From a virus: a DNA stretch of 60,599 bases. The stretch covers positions 1 through 60,599 of the IMG/VR virus record IMGVR_UViG_3300035138_000104; one strand, given 5' to 3'. Of the stretch, positions 1,782 to 60,599 are shown one piece after another; positions within the stretch are counted from its first letter, which is position 1; each line of letters begins with the position of its first letter. A model generated the notes under the pieces. It saw only the letters and a list, made by a program, of their open reading frames with translations. It ran no database searches and had not been told where the DNA came from. The position numbers and the translations under genes are program-made.

Positions 1782-2641
1782 GACTCCTGGAATGATTTTT
1801 TAACTTCGTCAGGGATAATAACTTTTTCATAACTATTGATATTTTTTTTATTTAAAATTTGTTGTGCTTTTATGTTATCATAACTCCCATTTATTAAAGC
1901 AGGTAAAAAACCATTATCTTTTAACCATTTATTTTTAAATGCAATATTAAAAAATAATTTACATTCTTCAATAGATTTAAATTTATTTAATAATAAAGAT
2001 AGCTGTTTAAGTTGTTTATTTGATTTATATATCAAGTTATTTATTTGTTCTTGTGTATAAATTTTTAATAAAATATTATTATAAATCATTTTATAATCAT
2101 TATAATTATTTTTAATTGTTTTTTTATTAACACTTAAAGCATTTATAGTATTAACACTTAAAGCATTTGTGTCTAATTTTCCACTGTCTTGATTTTCCAC
2201 TGTCTTGATTTTGGGACTCTGGATAATATCTGTTTTATTTTTTGACCATATATAATTAATTCTTACATACCAACCAACAACTTTATTTTCTTTATTTATC
2301 CGTTTAATATTTTGTATAAGACCTATATCTTTTAAAATTTTTTTTGCTTTATAAAATTTTGTTTTACTCCATTTTAAGCCTTTCACACAATAAGTATCCG
2401 TACATTTAGGTTGATTTGTTTTTTGCCATTTTGCAGTATAATAATAAAAAGTATAAAGACCTATCAAATCTGAAGCATTACTATATTGTAAAAACTTTTC
2501 TATTGTTTCCTTGCTTAATATTACTAATTGATTCTCTAAAAAATCAAATTGATCTATTTCTTGTTTAATTGGCTCATAAGTCTCAATTTTGAATGTTTCA
2601 TTATTTGTTTTCTGAAATTCAGTTTGTTTATTTACTTCCAC
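1772..2641 (-). CDS. Putative replication initiator / origin-binding protein
   Basis: 289 aa with a GTG start 7 nt after AAGGAG. It lies directly upstream of dnaB and overlaps it. It carries two sets of tandem DNA repeats internally (2126..2212). Confidence 0.5.
   Translation of the reverse strand: MEVNKQTEFQKTNNETFKIETYEPIKQEIDQFDFLENQLVILSKETIEKFLQYSNASDLIGLYTFYYYTAKWQKTNQPKCTDTYCVKGLKWSKTKFYKAKKILKDIGLIQNIKRINKENKVVGWYVRINYIWSKNKTDIIQSPKIKTVENQDSGKLDTNALSVNTINALSVNKKTIKNNYNDYKMIYNNILLKIYTQEQINNLIYKSNKQLKQLSLLLNKFKSIEECKLFFNIAFKNKWLKDNGFLPALINGSYDNIKAQQILNKKNINSYEKVIIPDEVKKSFQESWL
2126..2212. promoter_or_regulatory. Candidate origin iterons inside the initiator gene
   Basis: ATTAACACTTAAAGCATTT occurs twice (2126-2144 and 2150-2168, 24-bp period). 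CCACTGTCTTGATTTT then occurs twice in tandem (2181-2196 and 2197-2212, 16-bp period, so the two copies are read in different codon phases). Confidence 0.5.
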
Positions 2642-2660
2642 TTTTTAACTCCTTAAAAAT

Positions 2661-2742
2661 AAAAAAAGCCCCTTATTAGAGAGATGAAAGGCTCGGACAG
2701 AGACCTAACACCCCCTAATAAGAGGCTTTTCATTCTGTCCGA
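2661..2742 (-). ncRNA. 5'-flank/apical-loop complementary RNA element, copy 1 (leader of the initiator-dnaB operon)
   Basis: RNA sense: UCGGACAGA (2742-2734) is complementary to UCUGUCCGA inside the 12-nt loop 2703-2692. The outer stem is GCCUCUUAUUAG (2726-2715) with CUAAUAAGGGGC (2679-2668), 12 bp including one G-U that would be A-C on the plus strand. A U7 run follows (2667-2661). Confidence 0.6.
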
Positions 2743-2750
2743 TACCAAAC

Positions 2751-2778
2751 ATATTATAATATTTTTTCAATTTGTCAA
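2751..2778 (-). promoter_or_regulatory. Sigma70-type promoter
   Basis: TTGACA (2778-2773), 16 nt, TAATAT (2756-2751). The predicted start is about 2744-2743, 1-2 nt before element copy 1. The -35 box contains the TGA stop of the upstream gene. Confidence 0.6.
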
Positions 2779-3203
2779 CAAAAATATTTACTATAATATT
2801 CATAATCTTTTTCTAGTAATAGTTGTTGATGCTTTTTTATAAGATCATCGTTTATCCATTTTGGAAAATCATAGTTATATAGAATATATTCTGAACAATA
2901 ATCCATTTTCAATTTTTTAAATATTATACTCATATTCTTTCTATTAATATTTATTTTATACCCTCTCCGTTGCCATTCTTCAAGATGACATAATATATAT
3001 TGTAAGTAATATTCAATATAATCTTCCCATTGTTTTATATTAGGATGATTTTTAACCGATTTTTTAGGGTTTACAAGCTTATCATTAATATTTAATAGGC
3101 TAGCTATGCCATGAATGTTTTCATAAATATTAGCTTGCAGTCTATTTCTATCTAGATAAGATGCTGATTTACAAAAATCATAATCTAATATCCAATTTTG
3201 CAT
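2775..3203 (-). CDS. Pyrimidine-dimer DNA glycosylase-like protein (DenV/Pyr_excise-like)
   Basis: 142 aa. The pattern W..D....SASYLD..RL.A...E...........NHP....W......YL......EW..RGY resembles bacterial/phage endonuclease V-type glycosylases (recognised from memory). Confidence 0.5.
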   Translation of the reverse strand: MQNWILDYDFCKSASYLDRNRLQANIYENIHGIASLLNINDKLVNPKKSVKNHPNIKQWEDYIEYYLQYILCHLEEWQRRGYKININRKNMSIIFKKLKMDYCSEYILYNYDFPKWINDDLIKKHQQLLLEKDYEYYSKYFC

Positions 3204-3223
3204 TATTATCCCTTAAAATAAAT

Positions 3224-3297
3224 TAGCCCCCCTCAGATTCGAACTGAGATTCATGAGTTTCTAAAACTCACGGCTTTACCAGTTAGCCCAGAGAGCC
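3224..3297 (-). tRNA. tRNA with anticodon UAG (Leu box) but class I shape (5-nt variable loop)
   Basis: 74 nt. Acceptor GGCUCUC/GGGGGCU (three G-U pairs), D loop with GG, anticodon stem UGAGU/ACUCA, loop UUUAGAA, T arm CUCAG-UUCGAAU-CUGAG, A73, no encoded CCA. Confidence 0.8.
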
Positions 3298-3300
3298 ATT

Positions 3301-3372
3301 GGGTATAAACGGGATTTGAACCCTGACCTTTTGATTCACAGTCAAATATGCTACCATTACAACATTTATACC
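3301..3372 (-). tRNA. tRNA-His (GUG)
   Basis: 72 nt. Acceptor GGUAUAA/UUAUACC, anticodon stem UUUGA/UCAAA, loop CUGUGAA, T loop UUCAAAU. The T stem has only three clean G-C pairs. Confidence 0.6.
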
Positions 3373-3374
3373 AT

Positions 3375-3447
3375 AAGCCTTGAATAGACTTGAACTATTA
3401 TTACAGGATTCAAAGTCCTGTGTCCTAACCAATTGGACGACAAGGCT
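3375..3447 (-). tRNA. tRNA-Gln (UUG)
   Basis: 73-nt clean cloverleaf. Acceptor AGCCUUG/CAAGGCU, D stem GUCC/GGAC, anticodon stem CAGGA/UCCUG with loop CUUUGAA, T arm AAUAG-UUCAAGU-CUAUU. Confidence 0.85.
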
Positions 3448-3449
3448 AT

Positions 3450-3522
3450 TCAGCGTGGGTGGACTCGAACCACCGACATCTTGATTCCAAGTCAAGTAGG
3501 CTACCAACTGCCCTACACACTG
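3450..3522 (-). tRNA. tRNA-Pro (UGG)
   Basis: 73 nt. Acceptor CAGUGUG/CACGCUG (C1-G72), anticodon stem CUUGA/UCAAG with loop CUUGGAA, T arm GGUGG-UUCGAGU-CCACC. Confidence 0.85.
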
Positions 3523-3525
3523 TAT

Positions 3526-3598
3526 TACTCGAGGTGAGATTCGAACTCACACTTGATGGATTTTAAGTCCACTATCTCTGCCGTCGGATTACTCGAGC
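3526..3598 (-). tRNA. tRNA with anticodon UAA (Leu box) but class I shape (5-nt variable loop)
   Basis: 73 nt. Acceptor GCUCGAG/CUCGAGU, U8, GG in the D loop, anticodon stem GUGGA/UCCAU with loop CUUAAAA, variable CAAGU, T arm GUGAG-UUCGAAU-CUCAC, A73. Confidence 0.85.
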
Positions 3599-3686
3599 AT
3601 AAAAAAGGCTTTTATCAAAAAGGTATAAGTGATCGGCAGAAAACTTACACACAAATTAATAAAAGCCTTATCCTGCCGATCTTTAT
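3599..3686 (-). ncRNA. 5'-flank/apical-loop complementary RNA element, copy 2 (inside the tRNA array)
   Basis: RNA sense: GAUCGGCAG (3681-3673) is complementary to CUGCCGAUC in the 12-nt loop UUUCUGCCGAUC (3642-3631). Inner stem GUGUAAGU/ACUUAUAC (3650-3643 with 3630-3623) includes one G-U that is A-C on the plus strand. Outer stem AAGGCUUUUAU/AUAAAAGCCUU (3669-3659 with 3615-3605), then UUUUAU. Confidence 0.6.
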
Positions 3687-3759
3687 TTGCAGGTATGGGA
3701 GTCGAACCCAATATTTCTAGCTCATGAGACTAGCGTGTAAACCGTTTCACTCACCTACA
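3687..3759 (-). tRNA. tRNA with anticodon CAU (Met or Ile2 type)
   Basis: 73 nt. Acceptor UGUAGGU/ACCUGCA, anticodon stem CUAGU/GCUAG with loop CUCAUGA, T arm UUGGG-UUCGACU-CCCAU, A73. Confidence 0.8.
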
Positions 3760-3765
3760 AACGAT

Positions 3766-3795
3766 ATCATACTAAAACCGTTGGATGTTTGTCAA
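3766..3795 (-). promoter_or_regulatory. Sigma70-type promoter of the tRNA array
   Basis: TTGACA (3795-3790), 18 nt, TATGAT (3771-3766). The 7th nt downstream is 3759, which is the first nucleotide of the CAU tRNA. Confidence 0.55.
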
Positions 3796-3812
3796 CTATT
3801 TTTTTAAATTTT

Positions 3813-27145: not shown

Positions 27146-27389
27146 ATCAATACCACCTAAACCAATCCCAACTCCAATTAGAAAAGTTAATGAAGGATTT
27201 AATTTCAATTGGATTAGAGCATTTATTAAAAAAATAACCACTCCAAAATCTAAAAGAAAATTAGTATCTGTCAAAGAAGTAAAAGAGATTTATAAAGGAT
27301 TTTCCAAAAATCAGCTTATAAGAGTAATAATCCGACTATCTCAAGAAAATGCCATGTTAAGATATAAAAAAGGAATGATAAGAAAATGA
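27135..27389 (+). CDS. Basic small protein (84 aa)
   Basis: Translationally coupled ORF. The N terminus is Lys/Pro-rich. Confidence 0.6.
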   Translation: MKNKSIPPKPIPTPIRKVNEGFNFNWIRAFIKKITTPKSKRKLVSVKEVKEIYKGFSKNQLIRVIIRLSQENAMLRYKKGMIRK

Positions 27390-27559
27390 TCAAATATTTT
27401 TTAAAAAGGCAAAACGATGCCGAATTTAAAGAAGTTGCCAGATCTGAATATCTTCATCATCAAAAACAAGCTGGATATTATGTTGGTAACATGATATTAC
27501 GCAGCTTCCATGATAGAGACCAAAATATATCAGGCCAGGCAAAGGAAATTAAAAAATGA
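27386..27559 (+). CDS. Small protein (57 aa)
   Basis: ATGA overlap with the upstream stop. It is below the track cutoff. Confidence 0.5.
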   Translation: MIKYFLKRQNDAEFKEVARSEYLHHQKQAGYYVGNMILRSFHDRDQNISGQAKEIKK

Positions 27560-27645
27560 AAGATAACACCGCCTTTGCAATTTTTATTATAGTTATGTTT
27601 ATCATAGCTGTTTTATTATTATTTTTAGCAAAAATATTATTTTAA
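27556..27645 (+). CDS. Hydrophobic mini-protein (29 aa)
   Basis: ATGA overlap. MKDNTAFAIFIIVMFIIAVLLLFLAKILF is a single TM helix. Confidence 0.4.
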   Translation: MKDNTAFAIFIIVMFIIAVLLLFLAKILF

Positions 27646-27657
27646 GGAGAAATAAAA

Positions 27658-27957
27658 ATGAAAGCAATCAAAATTGATAAATACCAAAAAGTAGGTGACT
27701 TGGAATATTCAATAAAACTCAATGTAAAGTTAACATTTTGGCTAGCCGTGAAATTACGTATCGCCGGTATTTATAATCTTTTAGACGCAGAAGAACATAA
27801 ACCAATCCATAAACAAACAAATATATATCATAATGCCAATAGAATTGATACTTCTAATTTAAAATCTGGACAAGCAATTAGTAATGATTCAGAATTAAAA
27901 TTGGCTAAAAAATTAGAAAAAGACTTATTAAATAAAAGAGGAAGAAGATTCAAATAA
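27658..27957 (+). CDS. Hypothetical protein (99 aa)
   Basis: AAGGAG lies 8 nt upstream. Its 3' end overlaps the 3' end of the convergent gene 27950..28639 by 8 bp. Confidence 0.6.
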   Translation: MKAIKIDKYQKVGDLEYSIKLNVKLTFWLAVKLRIAGIYNLLDAEEHKPIHKQTNIYHNANRIDTSNLKSGQAISNDSELKLAKKLEKDLLNKRGRRFK

Positions 27958-28639
27958 ATCTAACTTTCAAAGGTTTTTCAAATCCATAGACTGGCCTTCT
28001 GGAAAACATATAATTCCCTGAATAATCTGTAATCACATAAGAAAGATTCTTATAGCAAAAAATAGACTTATATTCTATATCAAAATCATTAAACTTATGA
28101 ACTAATTCATCTAATACGAATATGCAATTACTCTCAGTCATTGCGATTAAAGTATATCCTTTAGATTTAGCCATGGTTTTTAATGCCAAAGCAGAACAAC
28201 CAAAATTACTATTTTTCTTGGCTATCATGTTCATGAAAGGTGGAATTGTAGGGTTATATTCACAAATAAGCACTCTGGGGCGTGATTTTAAGTCCTTTAG
28301 TATAAAATAATCATTTCCGTCTATATCAATGCTTAGAAGGTCAATTTTAGTGTATCTGTTGATAATATCCGCATTCTTGACCCATTCATTGACAGCAATA
28401 CAATCATACCATCTAATATTACGTTCCAATTCATCAAACTTTTTTTTATTGCCTTCTATTAGAATGGCTTTCCATCCATTACGATATAAATTACAAACAT
28501 TAGAATAATGAACGCCATCCCATGAACCGAGATCAATACATACATTATGCCTTATTTTTATAATTTGAAATATCTTGGCGATTATGCCATCTTCCCCGAA
28601 TTGAGAATAAACATTAAATCCAAAATCTGATAATTTCAT
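27950..28639 (-). CDS. SAM-dependent methyltransferase (FkbM-like)
   Basis: 229 aa. YSQFGEDGII...CIDLGSWDG N-terminal pattern, then ...LSIDIDGNDYFIL. Confidence 0.55.
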   Translation of the reverse strand: MKLSDFGFNVYSQFGEDGIIAKIFQIIKIRHNVCIDLGSWDGVHYSNVCNLYRNGWKAILIEGNKKKFDELERNIRWYDCIAVNEWVKNADIINRYTKIDLLSIDIDGNDYFILKDLKSRPRVLICEYNPTIPPFMNMIAKKNSNFGCSALALKTMAKSKGYTLIAMTESNCIFVLDELVHKFNDFDIEYKSIFCYKNLSYVITDYSGNYMFSRRPVYGFEKPLKVRFI

Positions 28640-50492: not shown

Positions 50493-50512
50493 TCTTTCAC
50501 CTCATATATAAT

Positions 50513-50715
50513 AATAGTTGCTATGGTAAGATTCGATTCTTACAATAAGCACCTAGACAGCGAAACGTTTCAAATATGCTTCTAGGCCTGCGTTCAAGCA
50601 CTTCCTAATGGCTTATTTTTCCCGTCTATAAGTTTGTGTTATGGGCATCCAGTTGCCTACTGGCATAACAACTTATTTCTTAAGGGCGTCTCTATTCCGC
50701 CACATAGCAACTATT
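50513..50715 (-). ncRNA. Candidate ~200-nt multi-helix structured RNA in the ASCH gene leader
   Basis: 13-bp closing helix (50513-50525 with 50703-50715) around four arms. These are hairpin 50526-50543; helix 50544-50550/50611-50617 with inner 50552-50557/50581-50586; stacked helices 50628-50634/50670-50676, 50638-50643/50664-50669 and 50649-50653/50659-50663; and hairpin 50685-50688/50698-50701. The region is visibly more G+C-rich than its surroundings. The strand is inferred from context only. Confidence 0.5.
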
Positions 50716-50718
50716 TAT

Positions 50719-51117
50719 TTAATATTTTAATTCAATTTTTATTCTTTGTCCATATGCCGACCAACCAATTTTAGAATCCTTTGTAACAATTCGATTAAAC
50801 TGTTGACTATTCTTAATTTTAAAGCTTTCTTTGTCGAAATCGTCCACTTGAAAATTAAACACAAATGGGCAACAGCATAATTTCTTTTCATCTAAGTTAT
50901 ATACAATTAAATAAATCTCTTGATCTTCCAATATATATTGAGATAGATCAATAATTTGTTCTTCTGTAGGTACTTCGCCTTCATATATCAATACTGTTGT
51001 TAATTTTTTCTCTTGAATAATTGTTTTATCGTCTTTGCCATCGTCACCGTCCTCACTTTGCTGTAAAGGGCAACTTATTAACATAATACTTAGTAAAATT
51101 AAAATAAAATACTTCAT
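50719..51117 (-). CDS. Lipoprotein (132 aa)
   Basis: Signal peptide ending in the lipobox LISC. Confidence 0.65.
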   Translation of the reverse strand: MKYFILILLSIMLISCPLQQSEDGDDGKDDKTIIQEKKLTTVLIYEGEVPTEEQIIDLSQYILEDQEIYLIVYNLDEKKLCCCPFVFNFQVDDFDKESFKIKNSQQFNRIVTKDSKIGWSAYGQRIKIELKY

Positions 51118-53276: not shown

Positions 53277-53305
53277 ATTATACGTTAATTTTGTTTTTAT
53301 TACAA
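53277..53305 (-). promoter_or_regulatory. Sigma70-type promoter giving a (near-)leaderless mRNA
   Basis: TTGTAA (53305-53300), 17 nt, TATAAT (53282-53277), then AAACAACA and ATG (53268). Confidence 0.55.
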
Positions 53306-53321
53306 GTTTTTTCTTTGGTTT

Positions 53322-53528
53322 TTAATAGCCGTTGCCGTTGCCGTCGCCGTCGCTGTAACCGTAGCCGTTGCCGTCGCCGTAGCCGTCGCCGTAGCCGTCG
53401 CCGTAGCCGTAGCCGTTGCCGTTGCCGTAGCCGTTGCCGTAGCCGTCGCCGTAGCCGTCGCCGTAGCCGTAGCCGTCGCCGTTGCCTAAATTGCTTTGTC
53501 CTTCTTCATTTATAAAACTTTTTTCCAT
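53322..53528 (-). CDS. (Gly-[Asp/Asn/Tyr])27 repeat peptide (68 aa)
   Basis: ATG at 53528 follows GAGGAAGAGG. A 14-aa N-terminal segment MEKSFINEEGQSNL is followed by 27 dipeptide units G-D, G-N or G-Y (one S-D). Confidence 0.6.
   Translation of the reverse strand: MEKSFINEEGQSNLGNGDGYGYGDGYGDGYGNGYGNGNGYGYGDGYGDGYGDGNGYGYSDGDGNGNGY
53325..53486. repeat. 27 tandem hexamers GT[ACT]GCC (G+C-rich island)
   Basis: Direct reading of 53325-53486 gives 27 consecutive 6-nt units. Only three deviate from GT[ACT]GCC (ATAGCC, GTCGCT, GTAACC). Confidence 0.9.
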
Positions 53529-53839: not shown

Positions 53840-53887
53840 AAAATTACTCCTATATATTAAATATAATTCAACTCCTTATATAAATTA

Positions 53888-53960
53888 TAGGCACGGTAGG
53901 ATTCGAACCTACGATGTAACTTAATGCAAACTAGTATGACTCAAGCCTTTGTCCATGCCT
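53888..53960 (-). tRNA. Degenerate tRNA-like element (UGC at the anticodon position)
   Basis: 73 nt. Good acceptor stem AGGCAUG/CGUGCCU and T arm GUAGG-UUCGAAU-CCUAC. The D stem is displaced and has 3 bp (GAC/GUC), and the anticodon stem is weak (ACUAG/UAAGU with an A-A mismatch). Confidence 0.4.
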
Positions 53961-54070
53961 ATAACAAAAGGGATAAGGAGAAAATTTATTACAAGAAATT
54001 ATCATGAAAAAAAGTCTTATAAAAGATGTTGATAAGAAAGATTGCATTCAAAACTCCTTATCCCTAAAAA

Positions 54071-60166: not shown

Positions 60167-60597
60167 ACTATATCCTTTTTATATAAAATAATAGTTTCAT
60201 TAAATTTTTTTCTATTATATAATGAAATAAAAGGACACTTAAAATTATATTTCTTATATACTTTTATCGCCGTATTAGTTAATTGTTTAACTGTATTAAA
60301 TCGAATAGTTTTACATTTATTTTCTTTCCATAAATTTAAATGGATTCCTGCTGTTTGATCTTTTTCATCTAAAATTTCAGCTTCTTTTTTAGATAAAATT
60401 CTTTTTAACTCAATCTTGTTTTTTACATAAAATCCCCAAGCTCTATTATCTATATTATCTATATTTATAGATTTATCAAAGATTAAATTAAATGAACCAT
60501 AATAATGAATAGCATCAAGAGAATTATTTACCCATGAAGTTATATTAAGCACACACAATTCAACATTCTCTATATTGTCTATATTTATGTTATTCAT
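60163..60597 (-). CDS. Hypothetical protein (144 aa) spanning the assembly junction
   Basis: The start at 60597 corresponds to position 125 of the duplicated end. AAAGGAG (139-133) precedes that ATG in the circular molecule. Confidence 0.65.
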   Translation of the reverse strand: MNNINIDNIENVELCVLNITSWVNNSLDAIHYYGSFNLIFDKSINIDNIDNRAWGFYVKNKIELKRILSKKEAEILDEKDQTAGIHLNLWKENKCKTIRFNTVKQLTNTAIKVYKKYNFKCPFISLYNRKKFNETIILYKKDIV

Positions 60598-60599
60598 GC
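60473..60599. repeat. Terminal direct repeat copy 2 (identical to 1..127)
   Basis: See the feature at 1..127. Confidence 0.95.

Follow-up and report, generated by a model that had tools for sequence, protein, structure and literature searches.

The leader of the replication operon

We analysed a window of 60,599 nucleotides (nt), the whole of IMG/VR virus record IMGVR_UViG_3300035138_000104, and in particular an RNA leader of about 82 nt that separates the first gene of the replication operon from its promoter. The leader consists of a 5'-terminal segment, here called X, a short linker and a long hairpin that ends in a run of uridines, and X is the exact complement of a segment, X', in the apical loop of that hairpin. 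The same arrangement occurs four times in the window with unrelated X sequences, and comparison with related phage loci suggests that it is the pairing that has been under selection. On the minus strand, which carries essentially all genes of the window, the locus that heads the replication genes (copy 1) reads as follows in the order of transcription.

2775-3203, minus strand: DenV-like open reading frame (ORF; Pyr_excise) upstream of copy 1, with its TGA stop at 2777-2775
2778-2751, minus strand: copy 1 promoter, TTGACA (2778-2773), 16-nt spacer, TAATAT (2756-2751)
2742-2734, minus strand: X, UCGGACAGA, the 5'-proximal strand of a long-range helix
2733-2727, minus strand: A-rich linker AUGAAAA, joining X to the terminator base
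2726-2668, minus strand: long hairpin with an outer stem of about 17 bp, a UU/UU internal loop and an inner AGG/CCU stem
2701-2693, minus strand: X', UCUGUCCGA, the exact complement of X, at loop positions 3-11
2667-2661, minus strand: U7 tract, which makes the hairpin intrinsic-terminator-like
2654-2639, minus strand: ribosome-binding site (RBS) AAGGAG (2654-2649) and GTG start (2641-2639) of a replisome-organizer-like gene of 289 amino acids
1781-549, minus strand: dnaB, a clear DnaB, overlapped by the 289-amino-acid gene

The order of promoter, hairpin, U7 and RBS thus places a terminator-like structure between a promoter and the first gene that it serves. The TTGACA hexamer contains the TGA stop of the DenV-like ORF, and the hairpin starts 48 nt past that stop codon. 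The predicted transcription start is A2743, with X beginning at about +2; an alternative -10 element, a perfect TATAAT at 2758-2753, would leave a 14-nt spacer. The outer stem is GCCUCUUAUUAG/CUAAUAAGGGGC, its base is GGGGC, and U7 follows directly 3', which is the sequence signature of an intrinsic terminator. The apical loop is 12 nt long (UCUCUGUCCGAG, 2703-2692) and closed by AGG/CCU, although it may close by 3 bp more (CUC/GAG), and X' lies 1 nt away from the inner-stem 3' arm. The 9-mer of X has just two exact occurrences in 60.6 kb, one on each strand and 41 nt apart. The A-rich linker is able to pair with the U-tract in the released RNA.

Copy 1 is far more stable than its composition predicts: the region folds with a minimum free energy (MFE) of -42.4 kcal/mol (z = -7.5), a value that none of 200 shuffles equalled, and the hairpin alone accounts for -30 to -33 kcal/mol. 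An earlier note on this stretch, made from the sequence, had described the promoter with its embedded TGA, the nonamer complementary to the loop and the 12-nt loop closed by AGG/CCU, and its coordinates and sequences for copy 1 proved correct when checked base by base. It had given the outer stem as 12 bp; the two arms and the U7 tract are as described, but the MFE stem is longer, at about 17 bp plus the inner 3 bp. Its argument for a minus-sense RNA holds, as the hairpin contains three G.U pairs in the minus-sense transcript and the plus strand folds about 12 kcal/mol worse. It had also proposed that the next block, AUGAAAAGC, pairs with GCCUUUCAU so that the start of the transcript matches the apical region in two swapped blocks. 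This pairing is present, but at 8/9 positions with one A.C rather than in full, and the swapped-block role did not survive: the other copies show no equivalent of the second pairing, and it is incompatible with X:X'. We rejected it as a conserved element, given its incomplete and unconserved pairing and its largely A-tract/U-rich composition.

The setting between a promoter and the replication operon, as that note had it, stands as well, whereas the name "initiator" for the first gene is a label. The 289-amino-acid protein has no match of its own in Pfam, PHROG, NCBIfam or PDB. The phage replication-module C-terminal domain PF09524/TIGR02220 is present in some of its homologues, and this, together with the overlap with dnaB, makes replisome organizer-like a reasonable description on sequence grounds.

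Four copies of one architecture in one genome

We scanned for hairpins whose interior is complementary to a segment on their 5' side, with shuffled strands as the control. The scan returned four copies, all on the coding strand and with outer stems of 14-21 bp, while the shuffled strands gave about one weak match (7-bp stem) each; the family surmised in the earlier note thus exists within the window. Copy 1 spans 2742-2661, and the others are as follows.

3685-3600, minus strand: copy 2 (span 3681-3600), X GAUCGGCAG at 3681-3673, X' CUGCCGAUC at 3639-3631 in the 12-nt loop UUUCUGCCGAUC; hairpin 3667-3607, then U6 at 3606-3601
40071-39958, minus strand: copy 3 (span 40035-39958), perfect TTGACA-16-TATAAT promoter at 40071-40044, X ACUGCGAG at 40035-40028, X' CUCGCAGU at 39995-39988 in the 12-nt loop UAGCUCGCAGUU; hairpin 40024-39969, then U6 and the RBS of a small accessory gene run
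57228-57105, minus strand: copy 4 (span 57192 to about 57105), TTGAAA-16-TATACT promoter at 57228-57201, X GAUCGAAG at 57192-57185, X' CUUCGAUC at 57146-57139 in the 12-nt loop UUACUUCGAUCG; hairpin 57178-57117

The geometry is the same throughout. In all four copies a 12-nt loop starts with U, X' occupies loop positions 4-11 and ends 0-1 nt before the inner 3' arm, X:X' comprises 8-9 bp that are Watson-Crick from end to end, and a spacer of 4-7 nt separates X from the hairpin base. The X sequences themselves are unrelated between copies (UCGGACAGA, GAUCGGCAG, ACUGCGAG and GAUCGAAG), and a search of the genome for trans targets of the four copies found no further perfect partner for any X or X'.

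The promoters of copies 1, 3 and 4 are of the sigma70 type and share a 16-nt spacer; in all three, exactly 8 nt separate X from the -10 hexamer, and X begins at about +2 after a conserved UA; the promoter-hairpin-first gene layout of copy 1 is repeated in copies 3 and 4. Copy 2 is placed differently. It lies in an array of six tRNA genes (3223-3760, minus strand: Met-CAT, Leu-TAA, Pro-TGG, Gln-TTG, His-GTG and Leu-TAG) whose gaps are 2-3 nt, with the sole exception of an 86-nt slot after tRNA-Met (3760-3686) and before tRNA-Leu (3599-3525), which copy 2 occupies. A TTGACA-18-TATGAT promoter (3795-3766) precedes tRNA-Met, with a start at approximately the first base of that tRNA; X begins 4 nt past the tRNA-Met 3' end, which leaves no space for an intervening promoter. 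The four copies therefore head quite different units: the organizer-like gene and DnaB with, further on, a methylase, SSB and RuvC (copy 1); the tRNA array (copy 2); an accessory block inserted in the head module (copy 3); and small genes leading to the terminase and portal (copy 4).

The elaborate form is confined to promoter-proximal positions, because the terminators at operon ends, after the capsid gene (24290-24269) and after the tail/lysis block (9003-8976), are short classical hairpins with loops of 5-6 nt and no 5' complement. Nor does every strong promoter carry the element. A perfect TTGACA-16-TATAAT promoter at 8780-8753 (minus strand), where an upstream TG (extended -10) was flagged, leads directly to an RBS without any leader hairpin, and heads the operon 8729-4003 (NinB-like and YqaJ-like genes and unknowns).

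Pairing is conserved in relatives and sequence is not

Related loci keep the helix and rewrite it. In L158, whose initiator-like protein is 66% identical, the promoter type is the same, the outer stem (AAAAGCCUUUAUAGC...GCUAUAAAGGCUUUUUUU) is similar, and the loop of 14 nt, UUUG followed by GUAACGCUUU, pairs with the 5'-end AAAGCGUUAC, so that relative to copy 1 the helix is retained and its sequence replaced. Two other relatives, L004 and L129, have the outer stem AAUCCGCAG...CUGCGGAUU in common and differ in X:X', and L160 carries a canonical copy with a 12-nt loop (UUC, GUAACCUG, U) as well as a second variant upstream of its initiator gene. Five further orthologous leaders (L026, L029, L032, L034 and L077; set A2) present X in the loop of a 5' hairpin that kisses the terminator apical loop. 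When set A2 is aligned by MAFFT, every cell of the long-range helix is paired (100%, against 27-47% in slid controls), and two of its seven pairs have changed on both sides (A-U to G-C and U-A to C-G).

Alignment by MAFFT mis-registered the four paralogues (set A1), the pair of copy 1 and L158 (set A3) and an N-padded block alignment, and we therefore kept the tool for set A2 and counted long-form covariation on hand-curated blocks. Across eight long-form members, all 70 of 70 X:X' cells are paired, a result that 0/1000 partner shuffles reach; these members had been chosen for complementarity, and the count shows register and covariation rather than discovery statistics. The four paralogues and four relatives have no conserved core in common beyond the U-rich start of the loop, and a MAFFT alignment contains only four invariant columns, all T. 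A loop that pairs with a strand outside its own hairpin, with covariation, is the hallmark of an H-type pseudoknot, and it is found both in the long-form members and in the independent A2 alignment. Covariation among paralogues and orthologues shows that the pairing of X and X', and not their sequence, is conserved and under selection.

A terminator-like hairpin lies no more than 450 nt upstream of the initiator homologue in 46 of 127 non-redundant loci, and 15 of these 46 leaders contain a flank/interior complement of at least 8 nt, versus 2/46 with the reversed flank and 2/46 with the 3' flank. In an unbiased set of 220 sense-strand terminator-like hairpins from related phage loci, complements of at least 9 nt occur in 8.6% of cognate and 0.9% of non-cognate comparisons (Fisher p about 1e-9), and the reversed-flank control gives such complements in about 1% of terminator-like hairpins. 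As judged from these sequences, the motif is widespread in the leaders of uncultured phages, especially ahead of one replisome-organizer family.

Some relatives are much more compact. In L124 (3500-3570), L157 (3366-3430), L082 (2843-2920) and L079 (about 100-153), interleaved perfect complements of 9-14 nt are arranged as X-Y-X'-Y' with linkers of 0-6 nt, an architecture that reads identically on both strands. These look like minimal, two-state versions of the motif, and in L082, L124 and L157 the two helices are mutually exclusive because the linkers are so short.

Predicted folding during and after transcription

All folding was carried out with the ViennaRNA energy model. When nascent prefixes are folded, X:X' closes the MFE domain of the four copies and of the orthologue L158 with P = 0.98-1.0, the value for copy 1 being 0.98. 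The X:X'-closed domain encloses the terminator 5' arm, which partly folds on itself, and it lasts for at least 14 nt of further transcription. At full length, the nested MFE structure is the terminator hairpin in the four copies and in L158. The competing folds suggested by the earlier note thus reappear in the predicted, nested model as an X:X'-closed domain versus a terminator. Any effect of X:X' would have to be kinetic, because the best nested fold that keeps it is 13-17 kcal/mol weaker than the terminator.

Proposed mechanism and its rivals

We propose, with moderate confidence, that the leader of copy 1 is an attenuator close to its promoter and carries a pre-emptor (antiterminator) of its own, which sets or gates read-through. 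Three components of this proposal we infer: that the U-tract hairpin terminates transcription in the host, that X:X' lowers termination and that the switch is regulated. A host-type RNA polymerase would start at about A2743, and X would be free until X' emerges approximately 40 nt later. X would then pair with X', closing a domain around the whole 5' arm of the terminator, whose 3' arm and U7 are made later, such that the long hairpin would have to form against a pre-formed domain tied to its base by a spacer of only 4-7 nt. With X:X' as the pre-emptor, a fraction of polymerases would read into the replication operon while the remainder would release an RNA of about 82 nt. Anything that blocks or delays X:X' would tip the balance toward termination, and candidates include a protein, polymerase speed or the released leader RNA acting in trans. 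If the proposal is correct, changing X (for example, UCGGACAGA to UCCCUCAGA) should increase termination and a compensating change in X' should restore read-through.

We favour a pre-emptor because of the order of folding, the sterics, the need for read-through and experimental precedent. Across a spacer of 4-7 nt, X cannot stay bound to the loop of a hairpin that is straight and zipped along all its 20-26 bp. Either the basal pairs, which are those important for termination, or X:X' must yield, the alternative being a sharp bend at the internal loop. Without read-through, neither the tRNAs that follow copy 2 nor the replication genes downstream of copy 1 would be expressed, since no promoter was found between copy 2 and the five downstream tRNAs or between copy 1 and dnaB. 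As precedent, stable structures placed a short spacer upstream of a terminator have been shown experimentally to suppress termination without sequence overlap (bioRxiv 10.64898/2026.06.17.733018). Within the sequences compared, X:X' is the sole conserved extra feature of the leaders.

Several observations weigh against this proposal. The terminator is 13-17 kcal/mol more stable than any nested fold that retains X:X', so refolding might be fast and X:X' might matter little, and the energy model treats nested structures only and takes no account of pseudoknots. The exclusion of one helix by the other is not universal, because the kissing-loop leaders of set A2 and the long-linker relatives L133 and L134 can sterically hold both. 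The geometry of the loop, in which 2-4 U-rich nt are followed by X', 0-1 nt and the inner stem, fits a stacked pseudoknot that coexists with the hairpin, and every long-form hairpin has a hinge-like internal loop. Copy 4 has a poor U-tract, merely UUUCAUUGU, and no regulator was recognisable among the scanned proteins. Finally, to call these hairpins terminators in an uncultured phage is to read them from sequence, and the termination rules of the host may differ from the standard ones.

Two other ideas about regulatory input were tried and rejected. The first was that upstream RNA sequesters X, such that only locally initiated transcripts read through and the element serves as an insulator; it was dropped because folding with upstream RNA lowers P(X:X') in copies 3 and 4 only and leaves it at about 1 in copies 1 and 2. 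The second was a leader peptide: AUG-initiated ORFs that end at the UAA of UAAGGAG exist in copies 1 and 3, but there is none in copies 2 and 4, and no convincing Shine-Dalgarno sequence was seen. A search of the leaders for regulatory input likewise found no conserved core, conserved leader ORF, antisense promoter or recognisable RNA-binding regulator.

The loop geometry and the hinge favour a different reading, in which X:X' is a tertiary clamp that coexists with the hairpin. The hairpin would bend at the internal loop, X:X' would stack on the inner stem and the 5' nucleotide would be buried at the helix junction. Such a compact, nuclease-resistant leader could stabilize the read-through mRNA at its 5' end, persist as a stable RNA of about 82 nt or nucleate a terminator with a large loop. 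An X' of 8-10 nt in a constant register is what an H-type stack would give; the hinge often has 5-6 nt on its 5' side only, the inner stem and X:X' together roughly match the outer stem in length, and the linker has 4-7 nt. With X at +2, only about one 5' nucleotide would stay unpaired, and in the kissing-loop relatives the long-range pairing leaves steric room for a formed terminator. However, both helices do not fit in the compact relatives, whose linkers are 0-6 nt, an mRNA would be stabilized by a simple 5' hairpin with no need for a U-tract, and a clamp that promoted constitutive termination would leave the five tRNAs downstream of copy 2 and the replication genes that follow copy 1 without a route to expression. 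We consider a clamp unlikely, though it deserves to be taken seriously. A protein factor could also use the element as a handle, in the manner of lambda N/nut or of Q at the pR'-tR' 6S RNA, with termination as the default and a shape-recognising protein, phage-encoded or from the host, switching the operons in a temporal programme by reading the X:X'/inner-stem shape or the promoter-proximal complex. Four transcription units begin with a strong promoter and, within about 85 nt of it, a strong terminator, an arrangement that suits such a programme, as does the conservation of shape and not sequence; the promoter at 8780-8753 lacks the element, and its operon could therefore encode the factor. 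Yet there is no antiterminator-like family among the proteins scanned, nothing resembling a nut box and no conserved DNA motif seen in common to the three promoters, and sequences that differ wholly between copies are hard to reconcile with sequence-specific protein binding. We regard a factor handle as improbable.

In the proposed pre-emptor mechanism the released leader is one candidate input, and a separate possibility is that it is a self-targeting RNA like P4 CI or P1/P7 c4. The RNA of about 82 nt would display X' in its 12-nt loop and X as a free tail, and by pairing in trans with a nascent X before that transcript makes its own X' it would prevent the pre-emptor and increase termination, giving dosage-dependent negative feedback in four circuits kept orthogonal by their distinct X sequences. 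Plasmid and P4 control RNAs sit ahead of replication genes, as copy 1 does; each copy addresses only itself, because X and X' lack any other perfect partner in the genome, and X differs in each copy and is free for about 40 nt of transcription. On the other hand, local concentration strongly favours pairing in cis, the loop is partly closed in the MFE structure, there is no consistent YUNR-like loop motif or Rfam C4 match, and, unlike in P1 and P4, no complementary target lies downstream of the element. We judge a self-targeting leader decidedly improbable. Countertranscript attenuation as in pT181 or pIP501, in which a plus-strand antisense RNA binds the leader and forces the terminator, would suit an element upstream of an initiator-like gene, and the hairpin with its A/U flanks is roughly symmetric and folds on the plus strand too. 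It is very unlikely nonetheless, as a search within and downstream of copies 1, 3 and 4 revealed no convergent plus-strand promoter scoring at least 9/12, copy 2 lies inside a tRNA array and G.U pairs weaken the plus-strand folds by 4-12 kcal/mol. A further account is that copy 1 is an ordinary terminator of the upstream gene, or an inverted repeat that acts as DNA (an origin or a protein site), with flank/loop complementarity by chance. The hairpin does lie 48 nt past the DenV-like stop and beside replication genes, and in such AT-rich sequence promoter-like hexamers are equally common in shuffles. Against this stand four copies with the same loop size and register, covariation among paralogues and orthologues, the enrichment at p about 1e-9, strand-specific G.U pairs and U-tracts, the absence of a common sequence for a protein to read and the same promoter-to-X spacing in three copies. 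Chance or a DNA-level repeat is strongly disfavoured and for practical purposes excluded.

A bolder version of the pre-emptor mechanism is a widespread, ligand-free antiterminator that works by loop capture: the 5' end of the transcript would seize the apical loop of the terminator while the 3' arm is still unmade, and would then block the hairpin by mechanical or steric strain through the very short spacer, with no competition for shared nucleotides. The copies would be orthogonal promoter-attenuator cassettes of uncultured phages, possibly ones that infect Patescibacteria of the candidate phyla radiation (CPR), and the leader RNA might feed back in trans in a P4-like control of dosage. Taken with all its parts, this version is speculative and we think it rather unlikely.

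Relation to known systems

Functionally, the element would belong with the leader attenuators, a known kind, from which the apical-loop pairing, the lack of a conserved core and the reuse as a cassette set it apart. Like the platforms of ON riboswitches and attenuators such as the pbuE adenine riboswitch and the pT181 preemptor, it lies between a promoter and a first gene, an earlier-made structure is predicted to enclose the terminator 5' arm, the outcome would be a short RNA or read-through, and the more stable terminator would need the earlier structure to be absent or displaced. The differences are that the pre-emptor strand here pairs with the terminator apical loop and not with the 5' arm, that no ligand core, conserved nucleotides, leader peptide, antisense promoter or known protein site was found, and that four orthogonal copies, each with a different helix sequence, share one genome. 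The conserved ligand-binding core that marks a riboswitch was absent from the paralogues and relatives, and no Rfam match pointed to one.

The closest experimental parallel is the "Tug-of-war" antitermination of Bushhouse, Fu and Lucks (bioRxiv 10.64898/2026.06.17.733018), whose effect depends on spacer length. There, as here, a stable structure sits a short spacer from the terminator base and has no nucleotides in common with it, the spacers here being 4-7 nt. Their structure is wholly upstream, either ligand-stabilised or a fixed pseudoknot or hairpin, whereas here the terminator's own loop supplies one strand, the competing structure encloses the 5' arm and no ligand is evident.

Among phage systems, the P4 CI and P1/P7 c4 RNAs (Rfam C4, RF01695) are also leader RNAs with loops complementary to sequences of the same leader, and they too exert control by premature termination ahead of replication or anti-repressor genes. 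Here, in contrast, the complement is upstream only and in cis, with no downstream target found, and the 3' end is predicted to come from an intrinsic terminator whereas that of C4 comes from RNase P/PNPase processing. Lambda pR'-tR' (6S RNA) with Q, lambda N/nut and HK022 put resemble the element in having a constitutive promoter closely before a terminator, which yields a short RNA whenever the polymerase does not read on, or a promoter-proximal RNA element at the head of phage operons. Unlike them, the leaders described here show no Q-binding-type motif common to the promoters, no boxA/boxB and no two-hairpin put fold, and their conserved feature is an intramolecular helix to the terminator loop. 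The T4-type gene 32 operator likewise combines a 5'-terminal pseudoknot, an A/U-rich unstructured tract and the RBS of a replication operon, but here the partner in the pseudoknot is a U-tract terminator hairpin, four unrelated operons are headed and SSB is encoded far downstream.

At the gathering threshold, Rfam 15 matched only tRNAs in the whole window, and at E <= 10 the region 2600-3800 gave tRNAs and sub-threshold PyrR, sau-19 and Phe_leader hits (E of about 1) with no C4. In the open-access literature we found no description of a terminator-loop, kissing or pseudoknot leader motif of this kind in phages.

If the pairing does control read-through, it would represent a new design for a transcriptional switch, in which terminator and antiterminator have no nucleotides in common. 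Specificity would reside in a freely rewritable helix of 8-10 bp, which would allow four independent copies to coexist in one genome and would offer orthogonal, protein-free attenuators for RNA engineering. The leaders would also add natural examples to the experimental claim that a nearby structure can suppress termination without sequence overlap. Such a switch would bear on how early, replication and accessory operons are timed in phages without recognisable regulators, and on the annotation of the dark matter of uncultured phages, in which the motif would mark the starts of transcription units.

Genome context and other features of the window

The window is a complete, circularly assembled genome of about 60.5 kb. 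An exact direct repeat of 127 nt at its termini (1-127 = 60473-60599) marks the contig as complete, either circular or terminally redundant, with a genome length of about 60,472 bp; its G+C content is 29.5%. The phage is myovirus-like because it encodes a portal, large terminase, major head protein, tail sheath, tape measure protein and tail fibres. The IMG/VR relative L001 (64 kb) is 99% identical to the window. Neither megablast with the locus nor tblastn with the initiator-like protein gave a match among GenBank phages, even at E = 1, and the best match of the capsid protein among cultured phages is 38% identical, in Bdellovibrio phage phi1422. Relatives of the initiator-like protein come from metagenomes and bins of metagenome-assembled genomes only (Patescibacteria/CPR, Omnitrophota, Bacteroidota and others).

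Region 27250-27960, between the accessory block and the scaffold/capsid genes, is a long stretch without minus-strand genes and the sole region with plus-strand coding potential (ORF 27658-27957); it may be a divergent regulatory region. At 53302-53510, a repeat with a 12-nt period (GGC-GAC/AAC/TAC on the minus strand) gives a small protein a C-terminal tail rich in Gly and Asp/Asn/Tyr. Three further minus-strand promoter-like sites, TTGACA-17-TAATAT (48985-48948), TTGACA-18-TATAGT (46765-46728) and TTGTAA-17-TATAAT (53305-53266), are intergenic and have -10 elements that end 5-8 nt before the next ATG, which suggests leaderless mRNAs. Separate from the six-tRNA array, a tRNA-like sequence at 53888-53960 (minus strand, intergenic region 53840-54070) has a 7-bp acceptor stem, a perfect T-arm (GUAGGUUCGAAUCCUAC) and an aberrant D/anticodon region; it was missed by ARAGORN, and its Rfam tRNA score of 23.9 bits (E = 0.087) is below the gathering score of 29. 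Finally, an intergenic stretch of about 200 nt at about 50510-50720 (minus strand) is richer in G+C and is closed by a long-range stem (GUUGCUAUG...CCAUAGCAAC). With an MFE of -60.1 kcal/mol (z = -3.5) and no Rfam match, it is a candidate structured non-coding RNA, and a promoter-like TGGACA-17-TAAAAT lies upstream of it at 50752-50724.

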